This document shows positions 3,060-33,400 of a stretch of 64,000 bases of DNA, piece after piece (the stretch's first letter is position 1; every line of letters starts with the position of its first letter). Origin of the DNA: Mobula hypostoma (Eukaryota). The stretch lies in assembly GCF_963921235.1 (NCBI RefSeq), contig NC_086097.1:3720001-3784000 (forward strand). The letters run 5' to 3'. The position numbers and the translations under genes are program-made. The notes under the pieces were generated by a model. It searched no databases. It was not told the DNA's origin and saw nothing but the letters and a program-made list of their open reading frames with translations.

Positions 3060-3632
3060 TTTAAGCAACACACATCAAAGTTGCTGGTGAACGCAGCAGG
3101 CCAGGCAGCATCTCTAGGAAGAGGTACAGTCAACGTTTCAGGCCGAGACCCTTCGTCAGGACTAACTGAAAGAAGAGCTAGTAAGAGATTTGAAAGTTGG
3201 AGGGGGAGGGGGAGATCCAAAATGATAGGAGAAGACAGGAGGGGGAGGGATGGAGCCAAGAGCTGGACAGGTGATAGGCAAAAGGGATATGAGAGGATCA
3301 TGGGACAGGAGGCCCAGGGAGAAGGAAAAGTGGGGGGGGGGAACCCAGAGGATGGGCAAGGGGTATAGTCAGAGGGACAGAGGGAGAAAAAAGAGAGAGA
3401 AAGAATGTGTGTATATAAATAAATAACGGATGGGGTACGAGGGGGTGGTGCGGCATTAGCGGAAGTTAGAGAAGTCAATGTTCATGCCATCAGGTTGGAG
3501 GCTACCCAGACGGAATATAAAGTGTTGTTCCTCCAACCTGAGTGTGGCTTCATCTTTACAGTAGAGGAGGCCACCAGCAACTTTGATGTGTGTTTCTTGA
3601 ATTTCCAGCATCTGCAGAATTCCTCGTGTTTG
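3060..3632 (-). mobile_element. Penelope 3' fragment with a short inverted terminal piece
   Basis: Near-identical to the reverse complement of ~17700-18211. A plus-oriented pLTR piece sits at ~3572-3632, and the flanks attgcttatttatttgt / attactcatttatttgt resemble a TSD. Confidence 0.85.
3128..3163 (-). ncRNA. Hammerhead ribozyme motif (GUU triplet variant) in a Penelope end
   Basis: Reverse complement AGTCCTGACGAAGGGTCTCGGCCTGAAACGTTGACT. Confidence 0.7.
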
Positions 3633-4879
3633 CATTACTCATTTATTTGTTTGTTTGTTTGTTTATTTTTACTTCTTTCTTTTCGTATTTGCACTGTTTG
3701 TTGTCTTTTGCACACCGGTTGTTTGTCCATCTTTGTTGTGCACAGTGTTTCATTGATTCTTTTTGCAGCTACTGTGAATACCGACAAGACAATGAATCTC
3801 AGGGTAGTGTATGGTGACATATATTCACTTCGATAATCAACTCAATTTGAACTTTGAACTTTGAACAGGGGAGCTGAGCGGCCCATTCTTGCTTCGTTAC
3901 GCAAACTATTAACTTGGATAAGATCAGGCAACTCAACAAAGACTAGATGGGAATTTTGCATGTTTCTTCTGCCTTGGTCAATCCCACAATGGTGCATTTA
4001 ACACTGAGAGAGCTCAGGGGAAAAGGGTTCAAGGTTTTTCTATGAACTGTTTACTAACAATGTAGAAAAATAACACACCACATGTTGTGGTGTTCCATTT
4101 ACCAAAATGTACTTCTTAAAACACCAAAAGTAATTAAAGAACACGTCTTAAGTTTGTGCTTATTATAAAGCATAAAAATTAAGTGTTGTGTCAAACTCGC
4201 ACTAATATTTTTTTAAGATTTTCATGATATGTTTTCAGGACAAGGTCTAAACTCAAGCCAATTCCCACAAAATGATCCTGAATCGCAGGAGAATTCATTA
4301 ACCACTATTCTTTCACAAAGAAAGCTCACCAAATCTTTTCTTATACATTGATGCCACAGAGTGTTTCGGCATGAAGAACAATCTGCTGGAGGAACTCTTG
4401 CAGCTCGAGTAGCATTTGTAAGGGAAAGGCATTGCTAATTCCTACAGAGAATACCGAAAACTGCCAAAACCATCACCAGGGTCCTTCTCCCCACTTTTTG
4501 TGACATTTATTGGGAGCGTTGTAGAGGAAGGGTTTGAAAATTAGCTAAGGATCCCTACCACCCATCCCACAATCTCTCTGACCCACTGTAGTCAGGGAGG
4601 AGGGAGAGGAGCATCAGGACCAGGACTGCCAGACTGGGTAATGGCTTCTTCCCTCAGGCTGTGAGACAAATGAATACCCTGCCACCACCGAGGTCTCATC
4701 ACGAGGTCAGCAAGCTGCTTACTATTTACTTCACATGCATTTTCAATGATATTTTGTTAACTTATTGGTGGTAATATTTTGTTTTACGTATGTGCTGTGT
4801 GTGATATATGTATAGTGGGTGCACAATGGTCAGGGGAAACATTGTTTTGTTTGGTTGTACTCACGTACAGTCAGGTGAC

Positions 4880-5285: not shown

Positions 5286-6283
5286 TTTAGAGATGGCAGT
5301 GAACTTTACCTTGAATTTAAACTTGATATTCATCGTCAAAACCCTGCATAGTACTGATGCAAGGTTACAACCTGAAACATCAACAATTCCTTTCTCCCAC
5401 ACAGAGGTGCTGCTCAGCTTGCTGAGTTCCCCTGGCAGATTGTTTGTCGCTCTGCATTCCCGCATCTGCCATCTCTTGTGCTTCCATATTTCTACACAAA
5501 TCTTGGTACTTTTTTTCATTTCTACATATATACAGATTAAAATACTGCGGCCTATTGGAAAGCTGATTTGAAAGTACAAAATTATGCAAATGCAGAGTAG
5601 ATCAGGCAACCCGGGTTGGAGGTGAGGCTGATTCTTCTGGGGTAACCTTCCATTAGAACTTGTGAGAGGACCCAACAATAATGAAGCCTAACTTTGCTTT
5701 TTCTTTCACGTCTTGGCATTTAATGTACCTTTAGAATGCTTCCGTTTCAAAACACCCGGGTTTGGGTTCCTCTACTTGGAACATTTAGATCCGAAGATCC
5801 TGGATTGATGGGTGAGCACCTATTGGTGCTGCCGTGGACAGTCCCAAGTCCGGCTGCAAAATGAGCAGGGTTTAGCATGGGGCTAGCAACTCCATCCCGT
5901 AAAAATCCAGATCTACAGAGACACCAACAGAGGCTCTGGAGGCCTCATCCCTGGGAGAGGGGGATGAGCCTCAGCCGGGGACACTGTGAAAGACTGGCCC
6001 AGGACAGATGACACTGTTGAGTTACCGTCGGCGCCCTGTACCCCAGCAGAATGATTGGGCTTGTGTACATCTTCGTGCTCAGTCTCTTCATCAATCATAG
6101 ACCACAGGGTGGATCTTTAACTTCAGTCTTTATATCCCTTGAAGTATTATTTCCTTTTGTTCTGTTGTACAGTCACATATAAAAAATTGTGCCATTGTTA
6201 TACTCTACACTGAATCCTTTTTTCATGTCAATTAACTTACTTCTACTTCTATTGTGAATTATGGTGTTCCTTGCTGTGCTCTG

Positions 6284-6429: not shown

Positions 6430-9400
6430 CTAAACGAAGAATGAAATCAACGCATGTTAAACAATAGAAGCAATGAAGAAAAATACAATAGATCCTGGAA
6501 CCTGGAATAAAACCCGCAATGCTGGCACGATAGTGTGGCGGTTAGCACAATGCATTACAGTACCAGCCACCTGAGTTGAATTGTCACCACTATTTGTGAG
6601 GAGTTTGTATGTACTCCCTGCGTGGGCTTCCTCCGGCTGCTCTGGTTTCCTCTCACAGTCCAAAGACGTACTGGTTGGTAGGTTAACTGGCCATTGTAAA
6701 TTGTCCCGTGACTAGATTAGTTATAAATTAAAGCTGTGAAAGGAGGAGGCTTGGGCACACACCTAGCAATCCTATCCTATAAAATCCCGGAGCTACAGAA
6801 AAGCCAACAGAAGCTCCAGAGACCTCATCCCTAGGAGAGGAAGAATCTTTGAAGATGGACTCCATTTGGAGATAACTTGAAAGACCGGCCCAGGACAGAG
6901 GCTCGGTGAGCTGCTGTCAGCAGGACAGGCCCAGGACAGAGGCTGTGTGAGCTGCTGTTGGCAGGACAGAGGCTCTGGGAGCCGCTTTCGGCGGGACTGG
7001 CCCAGGACAGAGGCTCTATGAGCTGCTTTTGGCAGGACAGAGGCTCTGGGAGCCGCTTTTGGCGGGACTGGCCCAGGACAGAGGCTCTATGAGCTGCTGT
7101 TGGCAGGACAGAGGCTCTGGGAGCCGCTTTCGGCGGGACTGGCCCAGGACAGAGGCTCTATGAGCTGCTGTTGGCAGGACAGAGGCTCTGGGAGCCGCTT
7201 TCTGCGGGACTGACCCAGGACAAGGCTCGGTGAGCTGCTGTTGGCAGGACAGAGGCTCTGGGAGCCGCTTTCGGTGGGACTGACCCAGGACAGAGGCTGT
7301 GTGAGCTGCTGTTGTCAGGACTGACCCAGGACAGAGGCTCTATGAGCTGCTGTTGGCAACCTAGGCCCAATAGGGGTGATGGGTTGAAGTAAAGAATAAA
7401 AAATAAAATGTAAATGAACAGTAAACATTATATCATTCAGCAAATATGTGTTAGATTTTGTTTCAAGCAACACACATAAAAGTTGCTGGTGAACGCAGCA
7501 GGCCAGGCAGCATCTCTAGGAAGAGGTGCAGTCGATGTTTCGGGCCGAGACCCTTCGTCAGGACTAACTGAAGGAAGAGCTAGTAAGATATTTGAAAGTG
7601 GGAGGGGGGGAGGAAGAGATCCAAAATGATAGGAGAAGGCAAGAGGGGGAGGGATGGAGCCAAGAGCTGGACAGGTGATTGGCAAAAGGGATATGAGAGG
7701 ATCATGGGACAGGAGGCCCAGGGAGAAGGAAAAGTGGGGGGGGGGAACCCAGAGGATGGGCAAGGGGTATAGTGAGAGGGACAGAGGGAGAAAAAGGAGA
7801 GTGAGAGAAAGAATGTGTGCATAAAAATAAATAACGGATGGGGTACGAGGGGGAGGAGGGGCATTAGCGGAAGTTAGAGAAGTCGATGTTCACGCCATCA
7901 GGTTGGAGGCTACCCAGACGGAATATAAGGTGTTGTTCCTCCAACCTGAGTGTGGCTTCATCTTTACAGTAGAGGAGGCCGTGGATAGACCTATCAGAAT
8001 GGGAATGGGACGTGGAATTAAAATGTGTGGCCACTGGGAGATCCTGGTTTCTCTGGCGGACAGATTTTGTTTCTATGTCATTGGCACCATGAATATAGCT
8101 TGAACAATTGTACACAAAGTTTTCTATTAATCCCTTCGCATTATTATGACAATATTCTGTTTAGAATAAATAAATAATGCTATTAGAGACTTTTAGATAG
8201 GTACAGGAATGTGAGGAAAATGGAACGATATAAACATTGCGTAGACAGAGGAGATGAGTTTAGCTAGCCATTTGCTTACTAACGTAATTGGTTCGGCACA
8301 ACATTGTGGGCCAAATGGCCTGTTCTTGTGCTGTACTGTTGTATGTTCTATGTTCACAGATTTAAAGACTAGTTATTCCCTGAAAGCCTGTCCAAAATGA
8401 ATGCATTGTTATATTAACACTTTCAGAAACTCCATGGTTCCTTTTAATTAAAGGTTGCTCCTATAAATATGTTCTTTTCTGTGATTAAGTTGCTCTACAT
8501 GTTTACAAAAAGTCACTGATTAAATGTTCAGTACATGTTTTTTGGCCCTCTTGGGAATGTGATTCAAAAATTACATATTATGTAATTTGTGCTCTTATTA
8601 TCTAGAAACATTCCCATGATACTGCGTGAGAAAGCTCTGTGTAATGTTGTACCAGAATTTTACAAGACGGAGGAGTTGAGAAACAATCCTGACTTTACCA
8701 CAATTTTGTCATCATAGGACAAATTTAAGATCTATTTCCTAAAAGATTGTTTTATGAAATTGACAATCTGTTTCCTTCAGGTGCCATGGTAACGTAAGGG
8801 TTAGTGTTGCATTATTACAGCTCAGGGCCTCAGAGTTCAGAGTTCAATTCCAGCATCATCTGTAACAAATCTGTATGTCCTCCCAGTGGAATGATTGGGT
8901 TTTCTTCAGATCCTCTGGTTTCCTCCCACAGTCCAATAACATATTATTTAGTAGGTTAATTGGTCGTTGTAAACTGTCCTGTGATTAGGTTAAGGTTAAA
9001 TTGGGGGTTGCTGGGCAGCGTGGCTCGAAGCGCTGGAAAGACCTATTCCAAGCTGTATCTCTAGCTAACGAACAAAAAACTCAGTAAATGCCTAATAACA
9101 ACATTTAATTTTAGTCCATGTCCATGCTGAGTTACAACAGGATAATTTATTAAGGTGTTGATTTTACTTGCCTGATTTAGCTTTGATGGTTGCCCACTCC
9201 TCGTAGCTATCCAGATGTTCCTTCAGCTTACTGCAGAGAGTCACGTTCCCAACGTAGTCCAGGAGCACGTCAATGATTGGTCCGGCCCATCTGTAGATTC
9301 TGTCTGTGGATATGATCTCACAAAACTAGAAAGGAGATCGTTAGAAAAATTAATACTCCTGCACACAATTTCAGAAATATTCACATCAGAGCAAACCAAT

Positions 9401-12400
9401 TAATGTTGTGAAGATCCATTCCTGAAAAAAGTCAATCTAGATCTCTCTGCTGTTGCAGACATTGTTTTGATGCATTCTGCTCTATCATAGATTGTTTTCA
9501 TATTGGTTTGGAAGAAGATTTATGATCTGTCCTTAATGTTTAGTGAAATACACAACTAAAATAAATATATATTAACAAGGTTCAGGCTGCTACCTAATCT
9601 GTAGACAGCTATGCAGCATTCTCTGTCCTTGTGCTTCCCTGTCGAGGTCTATAATATAAGTGATAATATAATATAATAATATAAGTGACAACTTGAAAAC
9701 AAACTAAAAGTCCATGAGAGGCTAAGTGAGGGAGTATTGCACTGTATGATGCCTTCCAGCCAAATGAATTCCTCGTTGAAAAAGTATGTTTAATCCCTTA
9801 TTACAAATCAACACTAAAATTCATGTAGAACTAAAGGAAGCGAGACTATTGTAATTGGATCAAATTCAAACAAAGATGATCAGTCAAAGATGAGCGGTCA
9901 ATGAAAAATATGTGCTCCCTACTAACCCCTTCTGTAAGCCACCAAACTGCTGAACAGGTGACTATATTTGCTTTATTTTAACTGCCACCCAATGCCAGGT
10001 AACACCACCCAAACCCACCTGACAAATAACCTTAACCGTCTGAGGATGCGTAAGCAACTACAATACAGACAGGTAATACATAGATGATGTCTCCAACAAG
10101 GACTACTGCAATTATTACACACACCAAATGCCAGAGGAACTCAGCAGGTCAGACAGCATCTATGGAAAAGAATACAGTTGATGTTCCTACTGAAGAGTCT
10201 CAACTCGAAACGTCGACTGTACTCTTTTCCATAGATTCTACCTGGCCTACTGAGTTCCTCCAGCATTTTGTGTGTGTTGCCTGGATTTCCAGAGTCTGCA
10301 GATTTTCTTGCGTTTGCAATTATTATACAATGGCTTCATCAAACAGGCTACAACCAGGACATGTGAGATCACCGTCCTGTGAGAACAATGTGAAATATAG
10401 TGAGGCCCGTATGATGAGCAAGTGATACAGGTAATCAGTAAGGCTGATCAACACCTCTATCCACTAACCCACCCCTCCACACACCCCCAACCAGCACTGC
10501 CTTATCATTTCCGGTCAATCAATCTATATATACAAGCCATCTTGTGTATTTATTAGTGTGTGCTCTTTATCATATTGCAGAATTTTTTGTGCCGCATCAG
10601 ATCCAGGGTAACAATTATTTCATTCTCCTTTACACTTGCGTACTGGAAATGACATTAAACAATCTTGAATCTTGAATGTTGAGTGATGTGTGCAATTCCC
10701 TGTTTTATACTCCAGGGGGCCCTATCTATCTGTCTGTCTGTCACATTGGCTCTGTTCCACACCGAGCCTTCAACATCAGAGGGAAATGGATCAGCCATGA
10801 TGAAATGGTAGAGCAGACTCGATGGGCCAAATGGCCCAATTCTGCTCCTATATCTCATGGTCTTATGTTGTACATAATTTACTAGCAATTCATGGGAACT
10901 TATACTCTGCAAGATAGAATAGTATTTTACCCGTTCATACTTTAATTGCAATATAGCCCCCAGAAGTATTGGTACCTCTCCATGGCATGTTAATGGAGTT
11001 TCTCTGACAATAATGTTCACTCTGCAGCCTGTTTCTGACAGGAATTTGCCTACATTCCAATAAGGATAAACAATCAATGTGAAAACATGAATCCTTAGCT
11101 CACCTGTGGGTAGCAGGCCAAAAACTGCTAATATCAGCTTATATATCAGTTTAATAAAGCTTATTTATTGGGACAAAAGATGTTGTAATCACATATTTGT
11201 AAAAAACCATATATTTTGAACTTTAATATCTGTATTCAATGTACATGTCTGACTGTTCAAATTTGGACTGGTCTCATGGACTGTTTGTCCCACTCCCATC
11301 AGGGAGGAGGCTACGTAGCATCCACATCAGGACCACCAGACTCAAAAACAGTTACTTTCCCCAAACAGTAAGACTCAATCCACTAACCCATCCCACCACA
11401 CCACAACCACCACTACTTTACCATTTCCTGTCAGAGTCACCTCATGTCTTCTCCATGGATTGTCACCTTGTCGCGGTGGAGAAGCTTGTGTGGTCCTGAG
11501 ATCCCGAGAGCAATGCCATCTGGAGCTATGCTCCTGGTAGGGTCACCCATGACGGTAAAGTCGAGGGTGAGGTCCCTGACAAGACCTCAACGGTGGAACA
11601 GGAGGACGAAGTTACTTCGAACTCAATGGCTGTGAAGGCGGATGAAGGCTGCAACAAATCCATCAGCTCCAATCGTCGTGGTTTCCATGCCATTGGAATC
11701 AGTTGGTTGATTTGTGAAGCATCGTGTGCTTCTTGGAGTGCAACACCAAGTACACGTTAAACAAATACACGCACAGGCGTCTTCACTCTGTGGGCCACTT
11801 CTTCAGAACAAAGATCATCATCCTCGACCTCAAGGGATAGCCACGACGATGACACCTTATGTACAGACACTCCTGTGCTGAGCATCACTTTATGGACATA
11901 AACATAGAACATAAAAAGCCTACAGCACAATACAGGCCCTTCGGCCCACAAAGCTGTGCCGAACATGTCCTTACTTTAGAAATTACCTGGGGTTACCCAT
12001 AACCCTCTATTTTCCTAAGCTCCAAAAGTCTCTTAAAAGACCCGATCACCACTATCGCCGGCAGCCCATTCCACGCACTCACCACTCTCTGCATAAAAAA
12101 TTTACCCCAAAAATCAATCTATATATTTATCTATCTTATGTATTGATATTTATTGTGTTTTTTAAATTATTATTAATGTGTTCTTTATCTTACTGAGTTT
12201 TTTGTGCTGCATTGGACCTGGAGTAACAGTTATTTCGCTCTTCTTGTGTATTGGAAATTACATTAAACAATCTTGAATCTTGAAAAGCCATAAAGCTATT
12301 GGCATTCTGTGCATGGGGAGATACGGTTGGTTTACAATCAACTGATTGGCGGAAATAGATAACAAGCAGCGCAAATTCAGGGACCCTGGGGAGATCATTC

Positions 12401-15400
12401 TCAAAACAGAAAGTTCTGTATAGTACTTTTTCCTTTCAAAGAGGGAAGAGAATGGGAAAGCTGAAGAAAAGTGTGCAGGGAATTCCAGTAAACCGGAGCA
12501 GAGAGGTAGAGAAGTACAGAGCGGCCGGCTGAGAAGAGAGGATGGTGCACAGGGAATTGGCAGCACGCTGAATGATGGGACGTTGCAGTTGAGTTTTGAC
12601 TTGATTTAAGTTGCAGATGTTAATATTTGACTTCATTGCAGGGTCTGAACTCTGCAATGGATAGTCCCAAGCCCGACTTCGAAAGGGGGGGGGGTCGGGT
12701 TGGGCTTGGGGGCAACAACCCTGTCCTGTAAAAACCCAGAGCTACAAAAACACCAGCAGAAGCTCGAAACACCTTACCCCTGGGAGAGGAAGACTCTTCG
12801 AAAGCAAGCTACACCTGGGGACAACCTGAAGGAGACTGGCCCAGGGCAGAGGAGTCTGGCGAGCTGCTGTTGGTGGCTGATGCCCCAGTAGGGGTGATGG
12901 TCATAGGTAAGCAAGTGATGTCTAAGCCTACACCGTCAGTGCTGACTACTCGCCCACTCACTTGCTTACACACTGACTAGGTTACTGAACACGGAGTCTC
13001 GAAAGGAGAGGCAGGGAAGTAGCACAGTAACAGTGAGAAGGCCATAAGATATAGGAACAGATTTAGGCCATTGATCCATTGAGTCTACACCGCCATTTCA
13101 TCATGGCTGATCCATTTTCTTCTCTCAGCCTCAAACTCCTACCTTCTCTCCACATCCCTTCATGTCCTGACTCATTATGAATCTATCAACCTCTGCTTCA
13201 AATATACCCAATGACTTGGTCTCCACAGCTGCCAGTGGCAACAACTTCCAAAGGTTCACCACCCTCTGGCTAAAGATGTGGAGAAGAGGAGTGTGTGGAA
13301 GGAATAGGTCTGGCTGAGTGTTTAGCAAACTTCTGAGAGAGAAGGAAAGTGGTGGTTGTGCTGAACTACCTGCAGCAGTGTCGGTGATGTGGCCCGCTCT
13401 ATGGGAAGTAACGGTTGGTGGGGCCCATTCCTGTGGCTGGACTGAGCTACATTTCCCTAGAGGGACTATAACAGCCCCACACTCTGGTCCAGCAGCGCTA
13501 TCCCCTATACAACCTGGTCCTCAAATGGTTAAAGTTCAAAGTAAATTTATTATCAAAGTATACATCACCATATAGTTCTCTGAGATTCGTTTTCTTGGGG
13601 GTATACACACTAAATACACAAGAAATACAATAGAATTAATGAAAAGCTGCACACAACAAAAACAGACAAACAACCAATGTGCAAAAGACCACAGACCATG
13701 CAAATACAAATGAGAAAATGAAATAATAACAATAAATAAATAAGTAATAACTATGAAGAACATGAGACGAAGGGTCCTTGAACATGAGGTCATAGGTTGT
13801 GGAAACAATTCAGTATTGGGTGAGTGAAGTTGATGAGGCTGTCCCCTTTGGTTCGAATGCCTGATGGTTGAGGGTTAATAACTGTTCCTGAACCTGGTAG
13901 TGTGAGCCCTGAGGCTCCTGTACCTTCTTCCTGATGGCAGCAGTGAGAAGAGAGCATAGCCTGGATGGTGGGAGTCCTTGAAGATGGATGCTGCTTTCCT
14001 GCAATAGCCCTCCTTGTAGATGTGCTCATTGATGAAGAAGGAGTTTCCTATGACGGACGGGGCTGTATCCATTGAAAAGCGATGGCTGTTGGCCAAGTTT
14101 CCCAACTGGAGTCACCAAACAGTAAGGTATAAAATGCATAAAGAGTGTTTCTGTAGAACCATAGAACATTACAGCACAGAAACAGGCCTTTTGGCCCTTC
14201 TTGGCTGTGCTGAACCATTTTTCTGCCTAGTCCCACTGACCTGCACCTGGACCATATCCTTCCATACACCTCTCATCCATGTACCTGTCCAAGTTTTTCT
14301 TAAATGTTAAAAGTGAGCCCGCATTTTCTGTGTGAAGAAGCCCCCCCGCCAATGTTCCCTTTAAACTTTTCCCCCTTCACCCTTAACCCCATGTCCTCTG
14401 GCTTTTTTCTCCGCTAGCCTCTGTGGAAAAAGCCTGCTTGCATTCACTCTATCTATACCCATCATAATCTTATATACCTCTATCAAATCTCCCCTCATTC
14501 TTCTATGCTCCAGGGAATAAAGTCCTAACCTATTCAACCTTTCTCTGTGAGTTTCTCAAGTCCCGGCAACATCCTTGTAAACCTTCTCTGCACTCTTTCA
14601 ACTTTATTAATATCTTTCCTGTAATTCACAATACTCCAAATTCGGCCTCACCAATGCCTTATACAACCTCACCATAACATTCCAACTCTTATACTCAATA
14701 CTTTGATTTATAAAGGCCAATGTACCAAAAGCTCTCTTTACGACCCTATCTGCCTGTGACGCCACTTTTAGGGAATTTTGTATCTGTATTCCCAGATCCC
14801 TCTGTTCCACTGCACTCCTCAGTGCCTTACCATTTACCCTGTATGTTCTACCTTGGTTTGTCCTTCCAAAGTGCAATACCTCACACTTGTCTGTATTAAA
14901 CTCCATTTGCCATTTTTCAGCCCATTTTTCCAGCTGGTCCAAATCCCTCTGCAAGCTTTGAAAACCTTCCTCACTGTCTACTACACCTCCAATCTTTGTA
15001 TCATCAGCAAATTTGCTGATCCAATTTACCACATTATCATCCAGATCATTGATATAGATGACAAATAACAATGGACCCAGCACTGATCCCTGTGGCACAC
15101 CACTAGTCACAGGCCTCCACTCTGAGAAGCAATTCTCTACCACCACTCTCTGGCTTCTTCCATTGAGCCAATGTCTAATCCAATTTACCACCTCTCCATG
15201 TATACCTAGCGACTGAATTTTCCTAACTAACCTCCCATGCGGGACCTTGTCAAAGGCCTTACTGAAGTCCATGTAGACAACATCCACTGCCTTCCATTCA
15301 TCCACTTTCCTGGTAACCTCCTCGAAAAACTCCAATAGATTGGTCAAACATGACCTACCACGCACAAAGCCATGTTGACTCTCCCTAATAAGTCCCTGTC

Positions 15401-18400
15401 TATCCAAATGCTTGTAGATTCTGTCTCTTACTACTCACTCCAATAACTTACCCACTACCGACGTCAAATTTACCAGCCTATAATTTCCCGGATTACTTTT
15501 AGAGCCTTTTTTAAACAACGGAACAACATGAGCCACTCTCCAATCCTCCGGCACTTCACCGGTAGATACTGACATTTTAAATATATCTGCCAGGGTCCCT
15601 GCAATTTCAACACTAGTCTCCTTCGAGGTCCGAGGGAATACCCTGTCAGGTCCTAAGGATTTATCTACTCTGATTTGCTTCAAGATAGCAAGCACCTCCT
15701 CCTCCTCAATTTGTATAGGTTCCATGACCTCACTACTTGTTTGCATTATTTCCATTGACTCCATGCCAGTTTCCTTAGTAAATACAGACACAAAAAAAAC
15801 ATTTAAGATCTCCCCCATTTCTTTTGGTTCCATACATAGCCGACCACTCTGATCTTCAAGAGGACCAATTTTATCCCTTACCATCCTTTTGCTCTTAATA
15901 TACCTGTAGAAGCTCTTTGGATTATCTTTCGCCTTGACTGCCAAAGCAACCTCATGTCTTTTAGCCCTCCTGATTTCTTTCTTAAGTTTTATTTTGCACT
16001 TTTTATACTCCTCAAGCATCTTATTTGCTCCCTGTTTCCTATACATGTCATACATCTCTCTCTTCTTCTTTATCAGAGTTCCAATATCCCCTGAGAACCA
16101 AGGCTTTATCCCTCGATCGTGACCCCACTAAGGAGCACCAGGCCATTGTCTCCCACATCATCACTGACTTTATCCGCTCAGGTGATCTCCCATCCACTGC
16201 TACCAACCTTATAGTTCCCACACCTCGCACTTCCCGTTTCTACCTCCTACCCAAGATCCACAAACTTGCCTGTCCTGGCAGACCTATTATCTCAGCTTGC
16301 TCCTGCCCCACCGAACTCGTTTCTGCATACCGCAACACGGTTTTATCCCCCCTTGTTCAATCCCTTCCTACCTATGTTCATGACACCTCTCACGCTCTTA
16401 AACTTTTCGATGATTTTAAGTTTCCTGGCCCCCACTGCTTTATTTTCACCATGGATGTCCGGTCCCTATATACTTCCATCCCCCATCAGGAAGGTCTCAA
16501 AGCTCTACGCTTCTTTTTGGATTCCAGACCTAATCAGTTCCCCTCTACCACCACTCTGCTCCATCTAGCGGAATTAGTCCTTACACTTAATAATTTCTCC
16601 TTTGGCTCCTCCCACTTCCTCCAGACTAAAGGTGTAGCTATGGGCACCCGTATGGGTCCTAGCTATGCCTGCCTTTTTGTTAGCTTTGTGGAACAATCTA
16701 TGTTCCATACCTATTCTGGTATCTGTCCCCCACTTTTTCTTCGCTACATCGACGACTGCATTGGCGCTGCCTCCTGCACGCATGCTGAGCTCGTTGACTT
16801 TATTAACTTTGCCTCCAACTTTCACCCTGCCCTCAAGTTTGCCTGGTCAATTTCCAACACCTCCCTCCCCTTACTAGATCTTTCTGTCTCTATCTCTAGA
16901 GACAGCTTATCCACTGATGTCTACTATAAGCCTACTGACTCTCACAGCTATCTGGACTATTCCTCTTCTCACCCTGTCTCTTGCAAAAATGCCATCCCCT
17001 TCTCGCAATTCCTCCGTCTCTGCCGCATCTGCTCTCAGGATGAGGCTTTTCATTCCAGGACGAGGGAGATGTCCTCCTTTTTTAAAGAAAGGGGCTTCCC
17101 TTCCTCCACTATCAACTCTGCTCTTAAACGCATCTCCCCCATTTCACGTACATCTGCTCTCACTCCATCCTCCCACCACCCCACTAGGAATAGGGTTCCC
17201 CTGGTCCTCACCTACCACCTCACCAGCCTCCGGGTCCAACATATTATTCTCCGTAACTTCCGCCACCTCCAACGGGATCACACCACGAAGCACATCTTTC
17301 CCTCCCCCCCCTCTGCGTTCTGCAGGGATCGCTCCTTACGTGACTCCCTTGTCCATTCATCCCCCCCCCCCCCGTCCCTCTCCACTGATCACCCTCCTGG
17401 CACTTATCCGTGTAAGCGGAACAAGTGCTACACATGCCCTTACACTTCCTCCCTCACCACCATTCAGGGCCCCAGACAGTCCTTCCAGGTGAGGTGACAC
17501 TTCACCTGTGAGTCGGCTGGGGTGATATACTGTGTCTGCTGCTCCCGATGTGGCCTTCTATATATTGGCGAGACCTGACGCAGACTGGGAGATCGTTTTG
17601 CTGAACACCTACGCTCTGTCCGCCAGAGAAAGCAGGATCTCCCAGTGGCCACACATTTTAATTCCACATCCCATTCCCATGCTGATATGTCTATCCACGG
17701 CCTCCTCTACTGTAAAGATGAAGCCACACTCAGGTTGGAGGAACAACACCTTATATTCCGTCTGGGTAGCCTCCAACCTGATGGCATGAACATCGACTTC
17801 TCTAACTTCCGCTAATGGCCCACCTCCCCCTCGTATCCCATCCGTTATTTATTTTTATACACACATTCTTTCTCTCTCTCTCCTTTTTCTCCCTCTCTCC
17901 CTCTGACTATACCCCTTGCCCATCCTCTGGGCTTTTCCCCCCCTCCCCCTTTTCTTTCTCCCTGGGCCTCCTGTCCCATGATCCTCTCATATCCCTTTTG
18001 CCAATAACCTGTCCAGCTCTTGGCTCCATCCCTCCCCCTCCTGTCTTCTCCTATCATTTTGGATCTCCCCCTCCCCTCCCACTTTCAAATCTCTTACTCA
18101 CTCTTCCTTCAGTTAGTCCTGACGAAGGGTCTCGGCCTGAAACGTCGACTTTACCTCTTCCTAGAGATGCTGCCTGGCCTGCTGCATTCACCAGCAACTT
18201 TGATGTTGTTGCTTATTCTTATTCACTTTGCCTTTAGTCCTGACAGGAACATACAGACTCTGCACTCTCAAAATTTCTCCTTTGAAGGCCTCCCACTTAC
18301 CGATCACATCCTTGCCAGAGAACAAACCGCCCCAATCCACGCGTTTTAGATCCTTTCTCATTTCTTCAAATTTGGCCTTTTTCTAGTTTAGAACCTTAAC

Positions 18401-21400
18401 CCGATGACCAAATCTATCTTTACCCATGATCAAGTTGAGAGTAATGGTGTTATGATCACTGGAACCAAAGTGTTCCCCAACACACACTTCCCTCACCGTT
18501 AATAAAAAGATAGAAGATGCCGGAGAGTGGCAGCAGGTGAGGAAAGTGAATTATTAATGTTTAGAGTTATAAAGAAATATTAATGGAGTTATTGACTCAA
18601 ACCCGTAACTCGGTTTCTCCCGATGCAGATGGTATTTGGATTGATGACTTTCTCCAGTAACACGCTGAAAATGCTGAAGGATCTCGGGAAATGAGGCAGC
18701 ATCTATGGAGGGGAGTAAACAGTCAGACCCTTCATCATGCCGAGATGAAACCTATCGAATATTGGAAAGCCTAGAAAGACTGGATGGCAGAGGGCATTTC
18801 CTATAGTGGGAGACACAGCCTCAGAATACAGGTACATCCATTTAGAACGGAGATGAGGAGGGATTTCTTTAGCGGGAGGGTGGTGAATCTGTGGAATTCA
18901 TTGCCACAGGCAGCAGTGGAGGCCAAGTCATTGGGTGTATCTGAGGCAGAACTTGATAGATTCTTGATTAATCAGGGTGTGAAGGGATACGGGGAGAAGG
19001 CAGGAGACTGGGGCTGAGAGGGAAAATGGATCAGCCATGGTGAAATGGCAGAGCAGACTCAACGAGTCAAATGGCCTAATTTTGCTCCTATATTTTGTGG
19101 TCTTAAAAGCTTAGTTTGGACAAGATCAGGGTCCTAATGAAGGGGCTCGGCCTGAAACACTAATTGTTTATTCCTTTCCAGAGACACTACCTGACTTGCA
19201 GCGTTCCTCCGGCATTCTGTGTGTGTTAACCTGGATTTGCAGCATCTGCAGAATCTGTCCTGATGAAGGGTTTCAGCCTGAAACGTCAACTGTACTCTTT
19301 TCCTAGATGCTGTCTGGCCTGCTGAGTTCCTCCAGCATTTTGTGTGTGTTGCTCGGATTTCCAGCATCTGCAGATTGTCTCTTGTCTGCAGAATCTCTTG
19401 TGTTTATGATTTATCCCTACAACATTTACTGATTTTGTTTTAGATTTCCAGCATCTAATTTCTTTCTTGCTTTATTTATCTTTAAGATATTTCCTTGCCT
19501 TCAAGAGAAAAGGTTGCTGACTAGCTTTTTGAAAATTATACTATGAAGAAGTCAATTTTGTCCAACTTGTCTGCAGCTCAGCATAAACTTTTTGAAGTTC
19601 ATCCTGCAATCTAAATAGAGTCAGGTCCATATGGAGCTGAAAGCAAACTTCTGCAATGATATATCCACGACAAGGAACTTAGTCCGAAGAGAAAAAGACA
19701 AATTCCTAACTGTCGATGTGATCGAGTCTGAATGTGGTTGCCAAACAACAACATTTTGGACAGTGTTACTAATATTTATTTAGTAAATCACTTTGGCTGT
19801 CACTTTGGAAACAGTTCACACAGAAACTGAGTTTGCAAATCAATAGTTGAACTTGGAATTTGTCTGACCAACATTCTTCCATTGGTTTGAGAAACTTGAG
19901 TTTTCTATTTCAGAAAAATTGCATACCAAAAACCAAAAGTCATTTTGCAATTGTGTTATTAATGCATGTTCCCAAGTAACTGCTTATAAAGCAGATCAAA
20001 TTTGAAATATGTGCGCTATCTGAACTGGTTCCTTGGCTGTGTCCTGCAGGCATTGGGCTCCTGGGGTGGCTTCACTCAGCTCAGCACTGAATTGGACTCA
20101 TTTTCCGGGACTCTGCAGTTCATGTTCTCTGTGTTATTTGTTTTCCTTTTTTTATTGTTTGCGCAATTTGTTCTCTTTTTCACACATTGAGTGTTCATTG
20201 GTCTTTGTTGTGTCAGGTTTTTTGTGAATTCTGTCGCACTTCTTTGTTTTGAGGCTGCTTGCAAGAAGATGAATCTTCAGGTTGTATATGGTATACATAC
20301 TTTGATAATAAATATACAGTACTGTGCTAAAGTCTTAGGTACATTTATATAGCTAAGGTGCCTAAGACATTGCACAGTACTGCAATTGTCAATGTGGAGC
20401 AGAGAGCAAGTTTGTAAATCTAGCATGAGCAAAAGATGTTGGGAATGGTGGGGGTAGAGCTCTGTGAGAAGGGAGTGGGACAGGTGGCAGAGGAGTGCCA
20501 GGGTAGCAGGTGGCGCAGGTGCTGGATCGTATGGGTTTAAATAGGTTGCAGGTGATAGAAACATAGAAACATAGTAAATAGGTGCAGGAGTAGGCCATTC
20601 GGCCCTTCGAGCCTGCACCGCCATTTATTATGATCATGGCTGATCATCCAACTCAGAACCCCGCCCCAGCCTTCCCTCCATACCCCCTGACCCCTGTAGC
20701 CACAAGGGCCATATCTAACTTCCTTTTAAACATAGCTAATGAACTGGCAGGTAAACCCCTGTTAGCTGGGTGGAGACTGGGCCTGTCAAGAACCCTATTC
20801 ACCCTTCATGTGATCAACGTTATCAGGTTGTAGGGATTCCCTTCTCTGGCATTCATTAGGACCTGGAGAATGATGAAGGTGGCATTAAGAGCATTAAGAT
20901 GCACACTGAGTAATCATGAGCCGAATTATGATCCAGTGGTCAGAGGTCTGTGTTTCACCTACTTCTCTAACATTTTTAAATATATATTGGCTTTCCAGCA
21001 GGTGTCTCAACTTGCCTGGTCAAAATACAGTGAAGGAAAATTTTAACTGACAAGTTATTTAGTCTATTTTTCACAGCATTTCAGCTTATAATGCCGTGGT
21101 TTCCATGGCAACAGGTTCAGAACAATCAGTTGTACAGTTTTGAAGTATGTCTTTCCTTTGCACTAAGGTATAGTTTTTGCATACCTTTTTGTTTTCTCTT
21201 TCATCACTGTCTTGTATAATATTATATCTCTGCGTTGTCTGCACCTACGTACCTGAGATGCAGTTGACTGGCATTTTCTCATTGGACCTGCACCTCACCA
21301 TGACAATAGACGATCCAGGAACGCCCAGCTTCTCACTTCATTCCCCCTCATCTGGATTCACCTTTCACCTTTCACCTTGCCCCTCCTCCTCAACTTCTTA

Positions 21401-24400
21401 TTTTAGCTTCTTCCCCTTGCCTTTCCAGTCTAGGTGAAGGGTCTCGGCCCGAAAAATTGCCCCTTGCCCTGCATAGATGCTGCCTGACCTGATGAGTTCC
21501 TTCAGCAATTTGTATGTGTTATTTTGGATTCCTAGCATCTGTAGAATATCTTGTATTTAGGATTAGTACTTTGTAAACGAATTGCTGGTCTTGCTTTGAA
21601 TTTTATAGGGTCTTCATTCAAGTTCAAATTTGTTGTCATTTGACTGTACACATATACAACCAAACGAAACAATGCTCCTCCAGACCACAAATCATACATC
21701 ACACATAGCACATCAAACTAAACATTACCATAAATAAATTAATAAAATATACTGTAATTCAAAATGCATCTGGCAACTTACAGAAGGACAGACATGTATC
21801 TGAACCAGGTGAACTGGACCTCCTTTCTCAGGAAGGCCATTGGAGAGCTGGAGGAGAGGTTGCGGGCTTTGGGACACTTCCTCTGAGCAACATGTAAGGC
21901 ATACATGCAGTTTTGGGCGAACTTTAAAGGACTTAAGGAGAAGAAACAAATGGCAATTTTGAAATATTCTATGTATTTACGTTCTACGTGAAATAGATCA
22001 TTTCTCAGAGATACAGCTGTGAAATGACTGAACCAAAGGGAGTGAAGAAAAGGCTGAGTCACCACGTCTGGAAGAGAGGAAGGGATGGAATTTGAGATGA
22101 AACCTGCAACTTTTATGTCTCTGTCCGGTTTAAAGTTCAAATTCCACTTGAGACATGAATAGGCTGAGGCATGGTTGTTCTACCTCATGGATATTTATCA
22201 GGGGAATTTCTCAAGCCACATGGGGAGTTCCATCTCAAACAACCAACTAAGAGGCACTATTATTGAGGGCCTTATAACTGCATGGTTCCTCAAGATTATT
22301 AATTGTAGCCGGGGGGGGGGGGCGGGGGTAGTAGTGAGGATAAGCTCCCACTACCTATTAAATGCTCCCAATGGTGTGCGTCTCAATTAATCTCTGACAA
22401 CCCAGTCCAAATCCTAATCTTCATGAACGGCTAAGCTACTAAACCCAGCGGAACCATTTCTACTGACAGGAGAAGGTACAAAGAATGGTTACTAGCACTT
22501 TAAAACCCATCACTTCAAGCAGATGGGGCTCGTCAGCTGAGGGTGGCGGCTCATCTAGAAGAAGGAAAACTCTGATCTTAAACCTCCACTGCCTAGCGGC
22601 TACACCCACTCACGGCCAAGGCTTTGGGAGTAAACCTCGAGGGAAAATCCAGAGCTGGAGTCCCTAAGGCAACGCTATGTTAAGGTCAATGCTGACGGAC
22701 AACTCCTGCAATGCTACAGGTGCTAAAGTGTATTGATCCCTGCTGTTTCTCTGGGTTCAACAGCAGCATGGAGAAGGGGAGCATCCATATTGTACTGCCC
22801 TGGCCTGTGTACCGGCTTGGATATGGCAACTAAACTGCCACATCCATGCTCGACCGAACTAACAGAGGGCCGCCATAATTGCATGGCCCAAAGCTAACAG
22901 AATCTGATTACTTACAGCAATAGGAATGTTGGTTCAGCTCATTTCAAACTGCTTTGCCTCCCTTTCTTTCAGTCACCAAAACAGGCACTTTGAGCTTGAA
23001 AGCACTTTAGTCTCTTTCAGATGGGGTGTGCAGCGAGGGGTAGCACCTCTGGTGAAGGGGCTTGTTGTGTCCATTCTGGGGCACCTCACTCACCTTTGAT
23101 CCCACCGGACACTCAGCTCTCAGCTGTGGCTGCAAGTAGCTGTTTGCGTGTGACAGCGGCCACACCGCGGTACAGCTCTTTGCCAGGTGGATGGAACCAG
23201 TTGAGAGTAACTGGCAGGGCTCATACCCCGGTGAGATAGAGTCATGCCTGTCCTAGCTTGTGAAGTCAGCTCTTGCGGACTGGACAGATGAGATCTACAG
23301 TGAGATCCAATGGCCAGGAAGGCTTTTCTGCAACGTTCCACAGAGAGTGAAGGGCAAGACAAGGCACCGAAGACATCATGGTCATCCACTGCACCCAAGG
23401 AGGACCCCAGTTTGTGACAACTACTCGTATCACCGGACACAAACTTCGGACGTCAAGAGAGTGGAACTGTCCCAGTGCAACAGCTTTACCACTTTCAAAG
23501 CTCTCCCACACAGGGCTCCTGTCATTGTTGGATATGACAGACAACCACCTCATACATTTCAGACTTAATTTTGTGCAGTCTCACAGCTAATATAGGCCCT
23601 CCATTGTCAGGGTCAACCATGGATGTTGCAACCTAGGTGACTATGTTTACGAAGGCCGGAACAGTATGAAATGGAGAACAAGCTGTTGCCCATGCAGGCT
23701 CCCTCTCTCCACGCAGATGATGAATCCAAAGAAACAGTGGAGACCAATACAGTTGGCACCAGCAGCATCACACGAGTTGTCAGTCAGTGTTGAACTCAAC
23801 ATAGGACTACCTTAGGAACGCCAGCTCTGGATTTTCCCTCGGGGTTTACCCCCGAAGCCTTCCCCATGAATGGGTGTAGCCACAAGGCAGCAGAAGTTTA
23901 AGATCAGAGTTTTCCTGTCCTGGATGAGCTGTCGACTATGGCTGATGAACCCCAACTGCCCTGAAGTGGTTAGTGTTTTCCCCCAATAATATCAATCTGT
24001 TAGCCAGAGAGAACTAAAAAAAAAATGCTTTTTCATTTTTCATTAACTTGTCCTCATGCAGGATTCCATAAAGGTTAACCTCCAGGTTGAGTCTGTGGTG
24101 AGGAAGGCAAGTGCAATGTTGGCATTATTCATTTCAAGAGGATTAGAATATAAAAGCAAGGATGTAATGCTGTGGCTTTATAATGCATTGGTCAGACGCA
24201 TTTGAAGTATTGCGAGCAGTTTTGGGCCCCTTATCTAAGAAAGGATGTGCTGGCATTGGAGAGGGGCCAGAGAAGTTTCACAAGAATAATCCCAGGAATG
24301 AGAGGGAGAACACATGATGAGCATTTGATGGCTCTGGGCCTGACTTACTAGAGTTTAGAAGAATGAGGCTTGATCTCATTGAAATGTACTGAATGTTGAA

Positions 24401-30400: not shown

Positions 30401-33400
30401 ATTGGATTATACAGCATCTAACATTGGCCAACATGTATAAAGGATTATTAAACATGATAATGCCTAAGCCATTTTGAATTAGCTCAACTCTCTTGTGCAC
30501 CGGAGATTCACCAGGTTGATTCCAGGGATGGGGGGGGTAGCCTATGAAGAGAGGTTGAGTCAGATGGGACAATGCTGTCTGGAATTCAGAAGAATGAGAG
30601 GAGAACTTATAGAAACATATAAAATTATGAAACTGATAGATAGGATAGATCTTGTGTTTGCAAGACCTTTTTGGACATTGGTAATGTAGAATAGTGCAAG
30701 TCTGAATCATTGGTTCATTGTAGAAACCGGTGGTGGGGGAACTGCATGGTCTTAATTGTGCAGAACAGGCCCTCAAGCCGTGGGATCGCCTGACGCAGCC
30801 GCCCAGGGGAGGAGTTGCCAGAGGCGGTGCAGTGTGGCGGGCATCCATGCTGGGTTCGGGACTGGCCACTACCATCAGTGCTATTCTCCAGTGTTCGCTC
30901 GGTGAAAAACAAGCTGGATCGTGATCATCTATGGCTGCACTAGTGCGTGGTGGCCAGACTGCCATGGGCTTGTTCTTGCTGACAAACATCTCATGGACCA
31001 TCAACAAACCAATGACACTCAGGGACTTGTGTGACTCGACGTTTACTGCTATAGTAATTATACATGCCTTGTGCTGTGTGCAGCCGTTGGTACTGAGTTT
31101 TACACCTTGGTCTCAGAGGAACGCCGTCTCGTTTGCCTGTATTCATCTATGATTGACCGACAATTAAACTTGAACTTGAATTTGAAGATAGAGGCTAGAA
31201 AGTTGTTTCTACTGGTGTGTGAGACTGAATTTGGGAGATGTGACCCCAAAATTGGGGGGGAGGAGAATTAATTTAGGACGGCGAAGAGGAGAGTAGTGAA
31301 TCTGTGGAATTCTCTGCCCAGCGAAACATTCTCTTTAGATATTCGTAAGACACAGTTAGAGAGGTTTTTGTATGGCAGGGTGATTAAGGATTATGGGGGA
31401 GAGGCAGGTAGGTAAAGCTGAGACATTAGCAGGATCAATCATGATCTTATTGAAATCAAGAACAGGCTCAGCGGGCCAGATGGCCAACTCCTACTCTTAG
31501 TTTTCACGTCTCGTATGTTTATGTAATTTTCCAGAGCAGTGAATTGTCTTCCTCTTCATCCGTTCATCTGTCCCTTCTAAACCTGCTCTCACCCCTCTTA
31601 CAGACAGTGCAATGTAGATCATAAAAACTCACTGCTCAGCAAACTCAATCCTCATTTTAGCCTCCACCCTAATGGTATGAACATGGATGTCTCCAACTTC
31701 GGGTAATTTTATTCTCCTCCCCCTTTCCTGTTTTCAGTTCCCAACTCCGGCCTCTTACCTTTCCTCCTCACCTGCTCAGTGAGGATATTCCCCATCTCCA
31801 TTCCCAATCCCCGTTCCCCTTTTACCCCTTCTCTTCCCCTCACCTATCATTCAACTTCCCCTGGTGCTCATCCTCCTCTCCTCTCTCCATGGTCCACTCT
31901 CCTCCCCGATCAGATTCCTTCCTCTTCATCCCTTTACCTTTTCCACCTATTGCCTCCCAGGTTCTGTTCACCCCCACCCCCCCCCCACTCCTACCCACCT
32001 GGCTTCACCTGTCAACTTCTAGCTTGGACTCCTTCACGTCCCCCACCTTTTTATTCTGGCTTCCTCCCCCTTCCTTTCCAGTCCTGATGAAAAGACTCAG
32101 CCTGAAATGTCGACAGTTTATACTTTTCCACAGATGCTGCCTGACCTGCTGAGTTCTCCAGCGTTCTCTTTGTGTCTCTCCTCATCTTGCCTTTTACCAA
32201 TTGTCTTCCAGCTTGGTGTCCTTTGATTACCAAATCCCTGCAGTAGAAGACCTCATAGTCCAGCGTCCTTCTCAATAACCGCACTGCGAGATAGTTGCAC
32301 TTACCGTGTTTGACAAGAAAACGCAAGGCTTCCAATTGTCCACTCTGAGCTGCAACAAACAATGGACTGACTCCATAGGCATTTGTTGACTCAATCTTGG
32401 CACCGGCGGTGATAAGAGCTTCAATAATGTCCAGATCGTTTCGTACAACTGCCTCGTGAAGAGCAGTCCATCCGCGATTGCAGCGGTGATTCACATCAGC
32501 ATTGAACTTAACCAGCAATTTCACCACCTCCACATTTTTATTTTCACAGGCTGTTAAAAAGGAAATCACAAAGTTAAATTAATATGTGCTGACAAAATTG
32601 GGGATATTGTGCTGCACAATATATGCATCTTTGAATTATATTTTATTAACTTATTTGTGGTAATGCAGTGGATTCTGGTTAATTGGGGCATCGGTTAATC
32701 AGTGCCGCTGCTTATTTGGGACAACTCTCAAAGCTCAAAAACTAATCGAGAAAATTGCCATTTATTTGGGACAGTATGCCACTTAATTATTTATTTATTT
32801 GGGACAGTGTGCCACTTATTTATTTATTTATTTGGGACAGTGTGCCACTTATTTTGGACAGGAGACTGTTGCTGAATAGATACTAACTAGTGTCAGCCAG
32901 GTGCACTCGTGTGGCCGTTGGATGCAACATCATGCTTCGAGCGAAGTTTTTATATTGTGTTAGCAGCCACTAATTGGATCAAAGGTGTCCCAATGAACTG
33001 GAATCCTCTGTCTTTTGTTTAATTTTATGTATATAAGAATCCGTTAATCTTATGAGACCATGGATTTGCTCCTTGGAAGGTTTCCAGGGCGCAGGCCTGG
33101 GCAAGGTTGTATGGAAGACCAGCAGTTGCCCATGCTGCAAGTCTCCCCTCTCCACGACACCAATGTTGTCCAAGGGAAGGGCATTAGGACCCACACAGCT
33201 TGGCACCACTGTCGTCGCAGAGCAATGTGTGGTTAAGTGCCTTGCTCAAGGACACACACGCTGCCTCAGCCAAGGCTTGAACTAGTGACCTTCAAATCAC
33301 CAGACAAATGCCTTAACCATTTGGCCACACGTCACACTTGTTTAATGTACTGAGTGTGATATATGTTGTGTGAGTGTCCCATGGTCCAGAGGAACATGGT

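Follow-up and report, generated by a model that had tools for sequence, protein, structure and literature searches.

A window of 64,000 nucleotides (nt) from Mobula hypostoma (contig NC_086097.1), to which all coordinates below refer, was analyzed around a hammerhead ribozyme motif at positions 18115 to 18150 of the plus strand. Two minus-strand open reading frames (ORFs) in the window encode ankyrin repeats, and one of these matches, with 100% identity across 89% of its length, a devil-ray protein named in its source as ankyrin repeat and SOCS box protein 2 (ASB2). The motif lies within the ASB2 coding span, in the 3' untranslated region (UTR) of a Penelope-like element (PLE) copy, and further copies and relics of it are scattered across the window. 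The coordinates of the gene, the element, and the copies are collected in Table 1.

The hammerhead and the element that carries it

The motif is a core-intact minimal type I hammerhead of 36 nt, reading AGUC CUGACGA A GGGU CUCG GCCU GAA ACGU C/GACU as RNA, where the slash marks the predicted cut between 18146 and 18147 (C17 and G1.1). All invariant hammerhead positions could be read directly from the letters, with C3 U4 G5 A6 N7 G8 A9, G12 A13 A14, the A15.1-U16.1 pair, and H17 present at 18119 to 18146. Helix I is open-ended and of the 4 to 5 bp typical of minimal hammerheads, AGUC pairing with GACU in this copy and a fifth U-G or C-G pair being present in others. The original prediction had described an intact minimal hammerhead at this position with a stem II of AGG/CCT, and the motif is present exactly as described apart from the register of that helix. 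When helix II was read as a bulged A followed by GGGU/GCCY, 93.2% of cells were paired across 48 distinct genome copies, compared with 78.6% for AGG/CCU, where 20 of 42 rows fail to form the A-U pair; the latter register was therefore rejected. The bulged-A register is preferred because of its better pairing, and it also matches the architecture given for minimal hammerheads in the relevant sections of PMC4209133, where an extra nucleotide follows A9 and precedes the 10.1-11.1 pair.

Using the Rfam hammerhead models (types I, II, and III, HH9, and HH10), no match at the gathering score was obtained in the 64-kb window, and no hammerhead was present among the eight weak Rfam matches at E values up to 10 within 17500 to 19800. 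As the motif has no helix III hairpin, which these models presume, the miss was expected and was not counted against it.

The hammerhead is located 304 nt past the stop codon of the carrier element and 68 to 69 nt before the element end. A 503-amino-acid (aa) open frame just upstream of the motif gave a weak match to RVT_1 in Pfam (26.1 bits against a cutoff of 29.6), and its relatives, identified through 112 matches with a best E value of 8e-153, are proteins of approximately 890 to 960 aa. Three relatives scanned in Pfam contained RVT_1 and GIY-YIG, the latter above its cutoff in two of the three. An 889-aa homologue combining a reverse transcriptase (RT) with a GIY-YIG endonuclease (RVT_1, plus GIY-YIG below the Pfam cutoff) was aligned by tblastn, which placed its residues 326 to 887 onto 16112 to 17803 in a single frame with 53% identity. 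Pfam detected neither GIY-YIG nor any other domain in the small ORFs 3' of the RT frame, and the endonuclease of the window element was recognized through homologues only; the 503-aa RT frame matched no PDB sequence at E values up to 1. On the strength of the homologue alignment, the missing 5' part, and the in-frame stop or stops, the sequence from 16105 to 18215 is classified as a dead, 5'-truncated PLE.

Self-comparison of the window indicated that the repeat containing the motif ends at about 18215, with approximately 94% identical copies at 7465 to 8064 and 3062 to 3572, both on the minus strand. All of the PLE copies in the window are 5' truncated, and by sequence those other than the carrier represent shorter 3' ends, either from its own PLE subfamily or from sister subfamilies. 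That the motifs are carried by Penelope 3' ends, as originally proposed, was borne out by the tblastn match, the domains of the homologues, and the alignment to a full unit of the family located elsewhere in the genome (L106).

Searched at the protein level, the ray's own genome yielded 151,871 first-look candidates for this family, of which 51 were scored. No stop codon was found inside the match at 47 of these 51 places, several of which lie within open frames of 1043 aa, and the family looks to have been recently active. In the full unit L106, hammerheads occur at 477 and 3993, a spacing of 3516 nt. The upstream one precedes the first in-frame ATG by approximately 60 nt and the 1043-aa open frame by 85 nt, and the downstream one lies 303 nt past the stop codon; across the six copies fetched, three (L104, L106, and L107) have the motif at 302 to 303 nt past the stop. 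L106 has the same arrangement of pseudo-long terminal repeat (pseudo-LTR), ORF, and pseudo-LTR that PMC8557442 describes for PLEs in its account of their structure, along with partial tandems, 5' truncation, and adjacent inverted copies. The partial tandem is seen in L106, and head-to-head pairs are seen in the window at 44608 to 44791 and at 3572. Position 11.1 is a U, giving a G-U pair, in L106 as well as in the open-frame copies L104 and L107, and a hand count of the first 100 genome copies listed gave 71 T, 26 C, 2 A, and 1 G at this position. The T may be a decay product of the CpG formed by C11.1 and G12 that was later fixed by a master copy.

Copies in the window and across the genome

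Using the 36-nt motif as a query with up to three mismatches, three further copies were identified in the window (3128, 7530, and 44663, all on the minus strand), and a strict core pattern matched at 10190 (+), 18119 (+), 19260 (+), and 44667 to 44694 (-). Neither search gave a match in 100 shuffles, which for the 36-nt query preserved dinucleotides. A covariance model trained on eight window copies, which scored the 18115 copy at 69.6 bits (E = 2.9e-17), found all ten places listed in the original prediction, whether as intact, variant, or decayed, together with two additional relics at 5344 to 5391 (+) and 55753 to 55800 (-). From a by-eye reading of the 12 model matches, both core boxes are kept in six (18109, 3122, 7524, 44657, 19250, and 32074), and three (18115, 3128, and 44663) retain the core together with intact stems I and II and the ACGU palindrome. 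Judged on sequence, these 12 copies and relics are dead, 5'-truncated 3' ends of several PLE subfamilies, lying in both orientations.

Table 1. Positions of the hammerhead parts, PLE copies, and ASB2 exons in the window
Feature	Coordinates	Strand	Remarks
Helix I, 5' strand, AGUC	18115-18118	+	Helix I of 4 bp with GACU
C3-A9 box, CUGACGA	18119-18125	+	
Extra (bulged) A after A9	18126	+	
Helix II, GGGU/GCCU, loop CUCG	18127-18138	+	4 bp, closing pair G-U (11.1 is U at 18138)
GAA	18139-18141	+	
Palindrome ACGU in place of helix III	18142-18145	+	
C17, cut directly 3' of it	18146	+	
Helix I, 3' strand, GACU	18147-18150	+	
5'-truncated PLE copy	16105-18215	+	93.5% DNA identity over 2107 nt to L106
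RT and endonuclease frame	16112-17815	+	In-frame stop(s) between 17497 and 17579
3' UTR of the PLE copy	17816 to ~18215	+	Holds the hammerhead
PLE 3'-end fragment carrying the 3128 hammerhead	3062-3572	-	94.4% over 519 nt (self-comparison)
Hammerhead, GUU site, helix I of 5 bp	3128-3163	-	1 mismatch
Decayed copy, A9 to C	5344-5391	+	30.2 bits; absent from the original prediction
PLE 3'-end fragment, end of endonuclease-coding part and 3' UTR	7465-8064	-	94.0% over 604 nt
Hammerhead, 11.1 is C (G-C pair), ACGU to ACAU	7530-7565	-	2 mismatches; palindrome lost
Decayed copy, core box CUACUGA	10177-10224	+	Strict pattern, covariance model
Two diverged head-to-tail units, ~126 nt each	19124-19374	+	76% between units
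Dead copy, G5 to A	19124-19171	+	
Core-intact copy, helix I broken (G1.1 to A)	19250-19297	+	
Decayed copy, core box UAGGUGA	21421-21464	+	26.1 bits
Variant of another subfamily	32074-32121	+	57.6 bits; core boxes intact, helix II degraded, ACGU to AUGU
Head-to-head pair of short PLE ends	44608-44791	both	61-nt arms, 92% complementary
Hammerhead, intact	44663-44698	-	1 mismatch
Decayed copy, C3 to U, C15.2 to A, G1.1 to A	45435-45482	-	55.2 bits
Weak relic	55753-55800	-	18 bits, E 0.032; absent from the original prediction
ASB2 coding span	58737 down to 6287	-	tblastn
ASB2 exons, 5' part	58737-58480, (52756-52646), 50901-50728, 35029-34859, 32551-32303	-	
ASB2 exons, 3' part	28553-28356, 27153-26536, 9325-9173, 6436-6287	-	
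ASB2 exon of one isoform only	~21940-21728	-	

Several of the copies have immediate neighbors derived from the same family. The fragment carrying the 3128 hammerhead adjoins an inverted 65-nt tail/leader piece at 3572 to 3636 (+), and the decayed copy at 45435 ends another PLE 3' fragment, whose endonuclease-coding remnant extends to about 46007. In the head-to-head pair at 44608 to 44791, the arms of which are 97.8 to 97.9% identical to L106, the minus arm (44608 to 44698) consists of the intact hammerhead and the tail, while the plus arm (44697 to 44791) begins 7 nt past the cut site, which leaves it without a hammerhead. Each unit of approximately 126 nt at 19124 to 19374 comprises a hammerhead, the tail, and the first 27 nt or so of the element leader, and the pair looks like a decayed retrozyme-like derivative; Tandem Repeats Finder, run on 19000 to 19500, did not report this two-unit remnant. 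A 73-nt stretch at 41823 to 41895 (-) is 100% identical to the tail/leader of L106 (534 to 606) and has no hammerhead.

Head-to-head inverted short PLE ends are common, being found at seven genome loci (L001, L007, L008, and L012 to L015) as well as at 44608 to 44791 and 3572 in the window, and in several of these pairs the arms join at, or a few bases from, the 5' edge of the hammerhead core. One exact 18-nt junction had 129 and 142 genome-wide matches, compared with 0 and 1 for a control, which could mean either that template switching favors this point or that a short palindromic element is being amplified.

Across the 3.48-Gb genome, the strict pattern gave 45,373 and 45,504 matches on the two strands (90,877 in total), whereas the reversed pattern used as a control gave 347 and 358 (705 in total), an excess of 129-fold. 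At the resulting density of approximately 26 strict motifs per Mb, about 1.7 would be expected in 64 kb, compared with the four found in the window (Poisson P of about 0.09, calculated by hand). At an E value below 0.001, the covariance model matched 11 times in the 64-kb window; in a background of eleven 10-kb stretches, placed arbitrarily on three large contigs (110 kb in total), it matched 18 times. Both the strict-motif count and the covariance-model density are at background, and enrichment at ASB2 was rejected. The original prediction had presented the ASB2 locus as a place through which the hammerheads had spread; its density equals that of the genome background, so it is not a special site in this respect.

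Rough extrapolation from the 11 stretches suggests several hundred thousand relics genome-wide. With approximately 91,000 core-intact motifs, a high number for a vertebrate genome as large as this one, the ray would rank among the most hammerhead-dense vertebrates seen. The count is roughly ten times the approximately 9,000 reported for Xenopus tropicalis in the counts of PMC4209133; up to 120,000 retrozyme copies are given for the far larger axolotl genome in those of PMC7229834, and as the descriptors differ, both comparisons are rough.

Conservation of the fold and relation to known hammerheads

To examine the fold independently of the ray copies, 80 PLE-protein-encoding loci from metagenome contigs (303 kb) were searched using a descriptor composed of the two core boxes, a helix II of at least 3 bp, U-H, and a helix I of 3 to 4 bp. 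This identified 22 motifs on the ORF strand and none on the opposite strand, with shuffles averaging 0.4 over both strands. Relative to the ORF match, hand reading placed 13 of the 22 downstream, seven upstream, and two inside composite matches. Sixteen of the motifs are distinct, and features lying outside the descriptor are widely shared among them: all 16 have the G10.1-C11.1 pair, 14 have the bulged A, and 15 have a helix III that is palindromic, the palindromes being AUAU, AGCU, ACGU, ACCGGU, and AAAUUU. Helix II pairs 4, 5, and 6 are paired in 16 of 16, 12 of 15, and 12 of 14 motifs, respectively, compared with shuffle means of 10.0, 5.8, and 5.4 (0 of 500 shuffles reached the observed values), and each of these three positions shows several types of pair. 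In helix I, pairs 1 to 4 are paired in 15 to 16 of the 16 motifs, and the fifth pair is at chance level. On these sequences the stems covary across unrelated PLE loci, and such turnover of the stems, with the boxes, bulged A, G10.1-C11.1 pair, and palindrome all kept, argues for selection on a ribozyme fold rather than on a mere binding site. The ray motif is of the same build, but its helix II is short (4 bp) and its position 11.1 is a U.

The minimal hammerheads of metazoan PLEs were described by Cervera and De la Pena in 2014 (PMC4209133). As characterized in the relevant parts of that paper, they share with the ray motif the type I topology, the CUGANGA and GAAA boxes, the extra nucleotide after A9, a helix I of 4 to 5 bp, and the replacement of a helix III hairpin by a palindromic ACGU at 15.2 to 16.2. 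Also shared are the location in the terminal repeat of an element encoding RT and GIY-YIG, the huge copy number, and the occurrence mostly as lone motifs in truncated copies, with some close pairs on opposite strands. The ray motif differs from most of them in that helix II is 4 bp rather than 6 to 8 bp, a length also found in 11 of the 16 metagenome motifs, and in that helix II is closed by G-U, in place of the usual G-C, in the 18115 copy and the majority of ray copies. It lies in sense with the ORF for RT and endonuclease and in a terminal position, on both sides of the ORF in L106. By these sequence features the motif is placed in the minimal hammerhead class, the G-U at 10.1-11.1 of the reported copy being the exception. 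The finding thus belongs to a known class.

The Poseidon element PAc of Anolis, as presented in the relevant results of PMC11167929, likewise carries a minimal type I hammerhead in the pseudo-LTR near the start of its ORF, and the activity of this hammerhead is weak. Protein-assisted cleavage has been shown in PAc, whereas the corresponding ray motif, approximately 60 nt before the ATG in L106, is known from sequence.

Animal non-LTR retrozymes, according to the passages on their structure in PMC7229834 and bioRxiv 10.64898/2026.07.22.740005, consist of short head-to-tail units with type I hammerheads related to PLE terminal repeats. The retrozyme-like sequences in the ray are the decayed two-unit remnant at 19124 to 19374 and genomic arrays of 40-nt and 62-nt units. 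Retrozymes are further characterized by expression as circular RNA. Unlike retrozymes, the 18115 motif is solitary and at the end of a fragment of an autonomous element, and it also differs from the canonical retrozyme hammerheads characterized in those passages, which have a helix III and loop-loop contacts. One chondrichthyan is listed among the species sampled for retrozymes in the bioRxiv study, whose shortest retrozyme consensus, as stated there, is 51 bp and therefore longer than the 40-nt ray unit. Of the two ray arrays resolved, one has 5.1 copies of the 40-nt unit at 100% identity (L110:462-665, contig C190) and the other has 8.0 copies of the 62-nt unit at 98% identity (L111:350-845, contig C50), the units being hardly more than the hammerhead itself. 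A pattern search for tandem pairs found further arrays with units of approximately 40, 61, 62, and 67 nt among the matches listed.

Hammerheads are also present in introns of amniotes, where they are reportedly few, canonical, full, kept at orthologous sites, and represented by Rfam models. Some ray copies resemble these in being oriented in sense within an intron of a host gene, but they have no Rfam match and are recent repeat insertions, the window copies being 92 to 98% identical to other copies in the genome. A full-text literature search, judged from the result listings, found no publication specifically on ray or shark hammerheads.

Role of the motif and consequences for ASB2

It is very probable that the motif is the minimal hammerhead of a PLE terminal repeat, and that the window copies are by-products of the PLE life cycle that are inert with respect to ASB2. 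On a transcript through a partial tandem, the upstream hammerhead would trim foreign upstream RNA and set the 5' end of the element RNA, which in the ray family would fall approximately 60 nt before the ATG, and cutting by both hammerheads would release element RNA of unit length. Such cutting would be weak, requiring either the pairing of two copies via the ACGU palindrome or help from the element protein. In the assays set out in PMC4209133, which place these ribozymes in PLE terminal repeats, single motifs showed no detectable cleavage and dimer or trimer constructs showed weak cleavage. This agrees with the statement in the original prediction that such hammerheads cleave best as dimers. 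In the relevant discussion, the authors proposed that the ribozyme processes element RNA from longer precursors, possibly yielding circles. For the Anolis PLE, the cleavage experiments of PMC11167929 report cutting only with the element protein present.

Several observations weigh against a cutting role. Within the ray genome, 86.6% of the alignment cells were paired across 48 distinct rows, compared with 85.4% in shuffles; only five cells had changed on both sides, and the variation was mostly one-sided, from C-G to U-G or from G-U to G-C. The copies appear to descend from very similar masters and to have decayed since largely at the four CpGs of the motif. As they are too alike, the stem covariation among genome copies on which the original prediction would have stood or fallen, although barely above shuffles, is decisive in neither direction. 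The closing pair of helix II is G-U in the 18115 copy, compared with G-C in all 16 of the unrelated PLE motifs. Nearest-neighbor folding of the monomer gave a best structure of -10.7 kcal/mol, compared with -6.5 for the hammerhead shape, in the form of a rod-like hairpin in which GACG of the core (18121 to 18124) pairs with CGUC at the cut site (18143 to 18146), and for the dimer the double hammerhead reached -10.5, compared with -29.7 for the best structure. In the reported experiments of PMC11167929, core mutants of the Anolis PLE inserted normally in vitro and no RNA-seq reads started or ended at its cut site, and the survey of clades in PMC8557442 includes PLEs that have no hammerheads and proliferate well. 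Given the insertion of core mutants, the lack of cut-site reads, and the hammerhead-free clades, the role of the motif in the life cycle is unproven.

The folding results and the U at 11.1 keep alive a rival in which the motif is marginally catalytic or noncatalytic in the ray lineage, its hammerhead shape being kept for a noncutting role, for instance as part of a 3' module recognized by the RT or as a passenger parasitizing the element. We consider this unlikely. It is favored by conservation of the hammerhead along with a tail of approximately 65 nt across subfamilies whose upstream flanks fail to align, by the presence of U at 11.1 even in the full unit and in copies with long open frames, by a predicted lowest-energy fold that conceals the catalytic core, and by the normal in vitro insertion of core mutants of another PLE. 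Standing against it are the unrelated PLE lineages, in which the stems have been replaced completely and the catalytic boxes, bulged A, G10.1-C11.1 pair, and palindromic helix III have been kept. In addition, the PAc hammerhead cleaved when the protein was present, and compensation of C3G by G8C restored part of its activity, in the mutant assays reported in PMC11167929.

Placement of the ASB2 exons by tblastn put the gene on the minus strand, which makes the hammerheads at 44663 (-) and 7530 (-) intronic and sense oriented, as originally claimed; the former lies in the intron between exons 50901-50728 and 35029-34859, and the latter in that between exons 9325-9173 and 6436-6287. Including these two, four intronic copies are in sense to ASB2 (44663, 45435, 7530, and the weak relic at 55753) and six are antisense (10177, 18115, 19124, 19250, 21421, and 32074, the last being approximately 180 nt from exon 32551-32303), so that orientation within the gene is mixed. 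Two further copies lie beyond the ASB2 stop codon, at 3128 (-) and 5344 (+), and the former, approximately 3.1 kb downstream of it, is hence outside the introns. Among the exons, the stretch of 50 residues found in just one predicted ASB2 isoform aligns to 21728 to 21940 (-) at 76% identity, compared with 91 to 100% for the others. Just downstream of the first coding exon, at 56736 to 58078, frames of 300 to 410 aa are open in all six frames, which points to a long repeat, simple or of low complexity, that lacks stop codons.

It is highly improbable that the sense copies at 44663 and 7530 cut the ASB2 pre-mRNA and affect ASB2 expression. Their strand and intronic position would allow it, and 44663 has a complete core with a helix I of 4 bp. 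The suggestion that the pre-mRNA would carry potentially self-cleaving motifs was nevertheless judged weak, as single minimal hammerheads showed no detectable cleavage in the assays described in PMC4209133, the 7530 copy has lost the palindrome that dimerization needs, and the 44663 copy has a head-to-head partner without a hammerhead and a sole sense neighbor (45435, approximately 780 nt away) that is core mutated. With monomers inactive in published assays and partners lost, cutting to a measurable effect is given very little credence. Furthermore, the density of copies in the window matches the genome, their orientation inside ASB2 is unbiased, and nothing links the insertions to ASB2 over any other intron; in these respects nothing sets ASB2 apart from the rest of the genome. 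Because the copies are the ends of dead retroelements, no denser here than in the background, they most likely have no import for ASB2 and do nothing measurable to it.

Chance resemblance inside a repeat can be virtually dismissed: the motif is scored by no Rfam hammerhead model, but it is already refuted as a chance match by the absence of matches in 100 shuffles, by the 129-fold genome excess over the reversed pattern, and by the same architecture in the same place in unrelated PLEs.

A cartilaginous fish genome with approximately 91,000 core-intact minimal hammerheads and a PLE family with many uninterrupted frames is of modest interest for the study of ribozymes and transposons, with the G-U in place of the usual G10.1-C11.1 in most copies and the clean 40-nt tandem units as further points of interest. 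The question of whether PLE hammerheads cut in vivo could also be conveniently addressed in this natural system. If the element protein acts in trans to help the ribozyme, as described for the Anolis PLE, bursts of PLE expression could cut many host pre-mRNAs that contain intact sense copies, including that of ASB2 through the 44663 copy. We regard this as very unlikely, and it would, if true, tie the integrity of host transcripts to retroelement activity.

Other retroelement frames, unrelated to the PLE, are also present in the window at 14607 to 15434 (-), 38165 to 39049 (-), 39594 to 40361 (+), and 41508 to 42584 (+), and matches among these four comprise RVT_1 at E values of 4.4e-30 and 6.8e-36, zf-RVT just below the Pfam cutoff, and a weak RVT_1.

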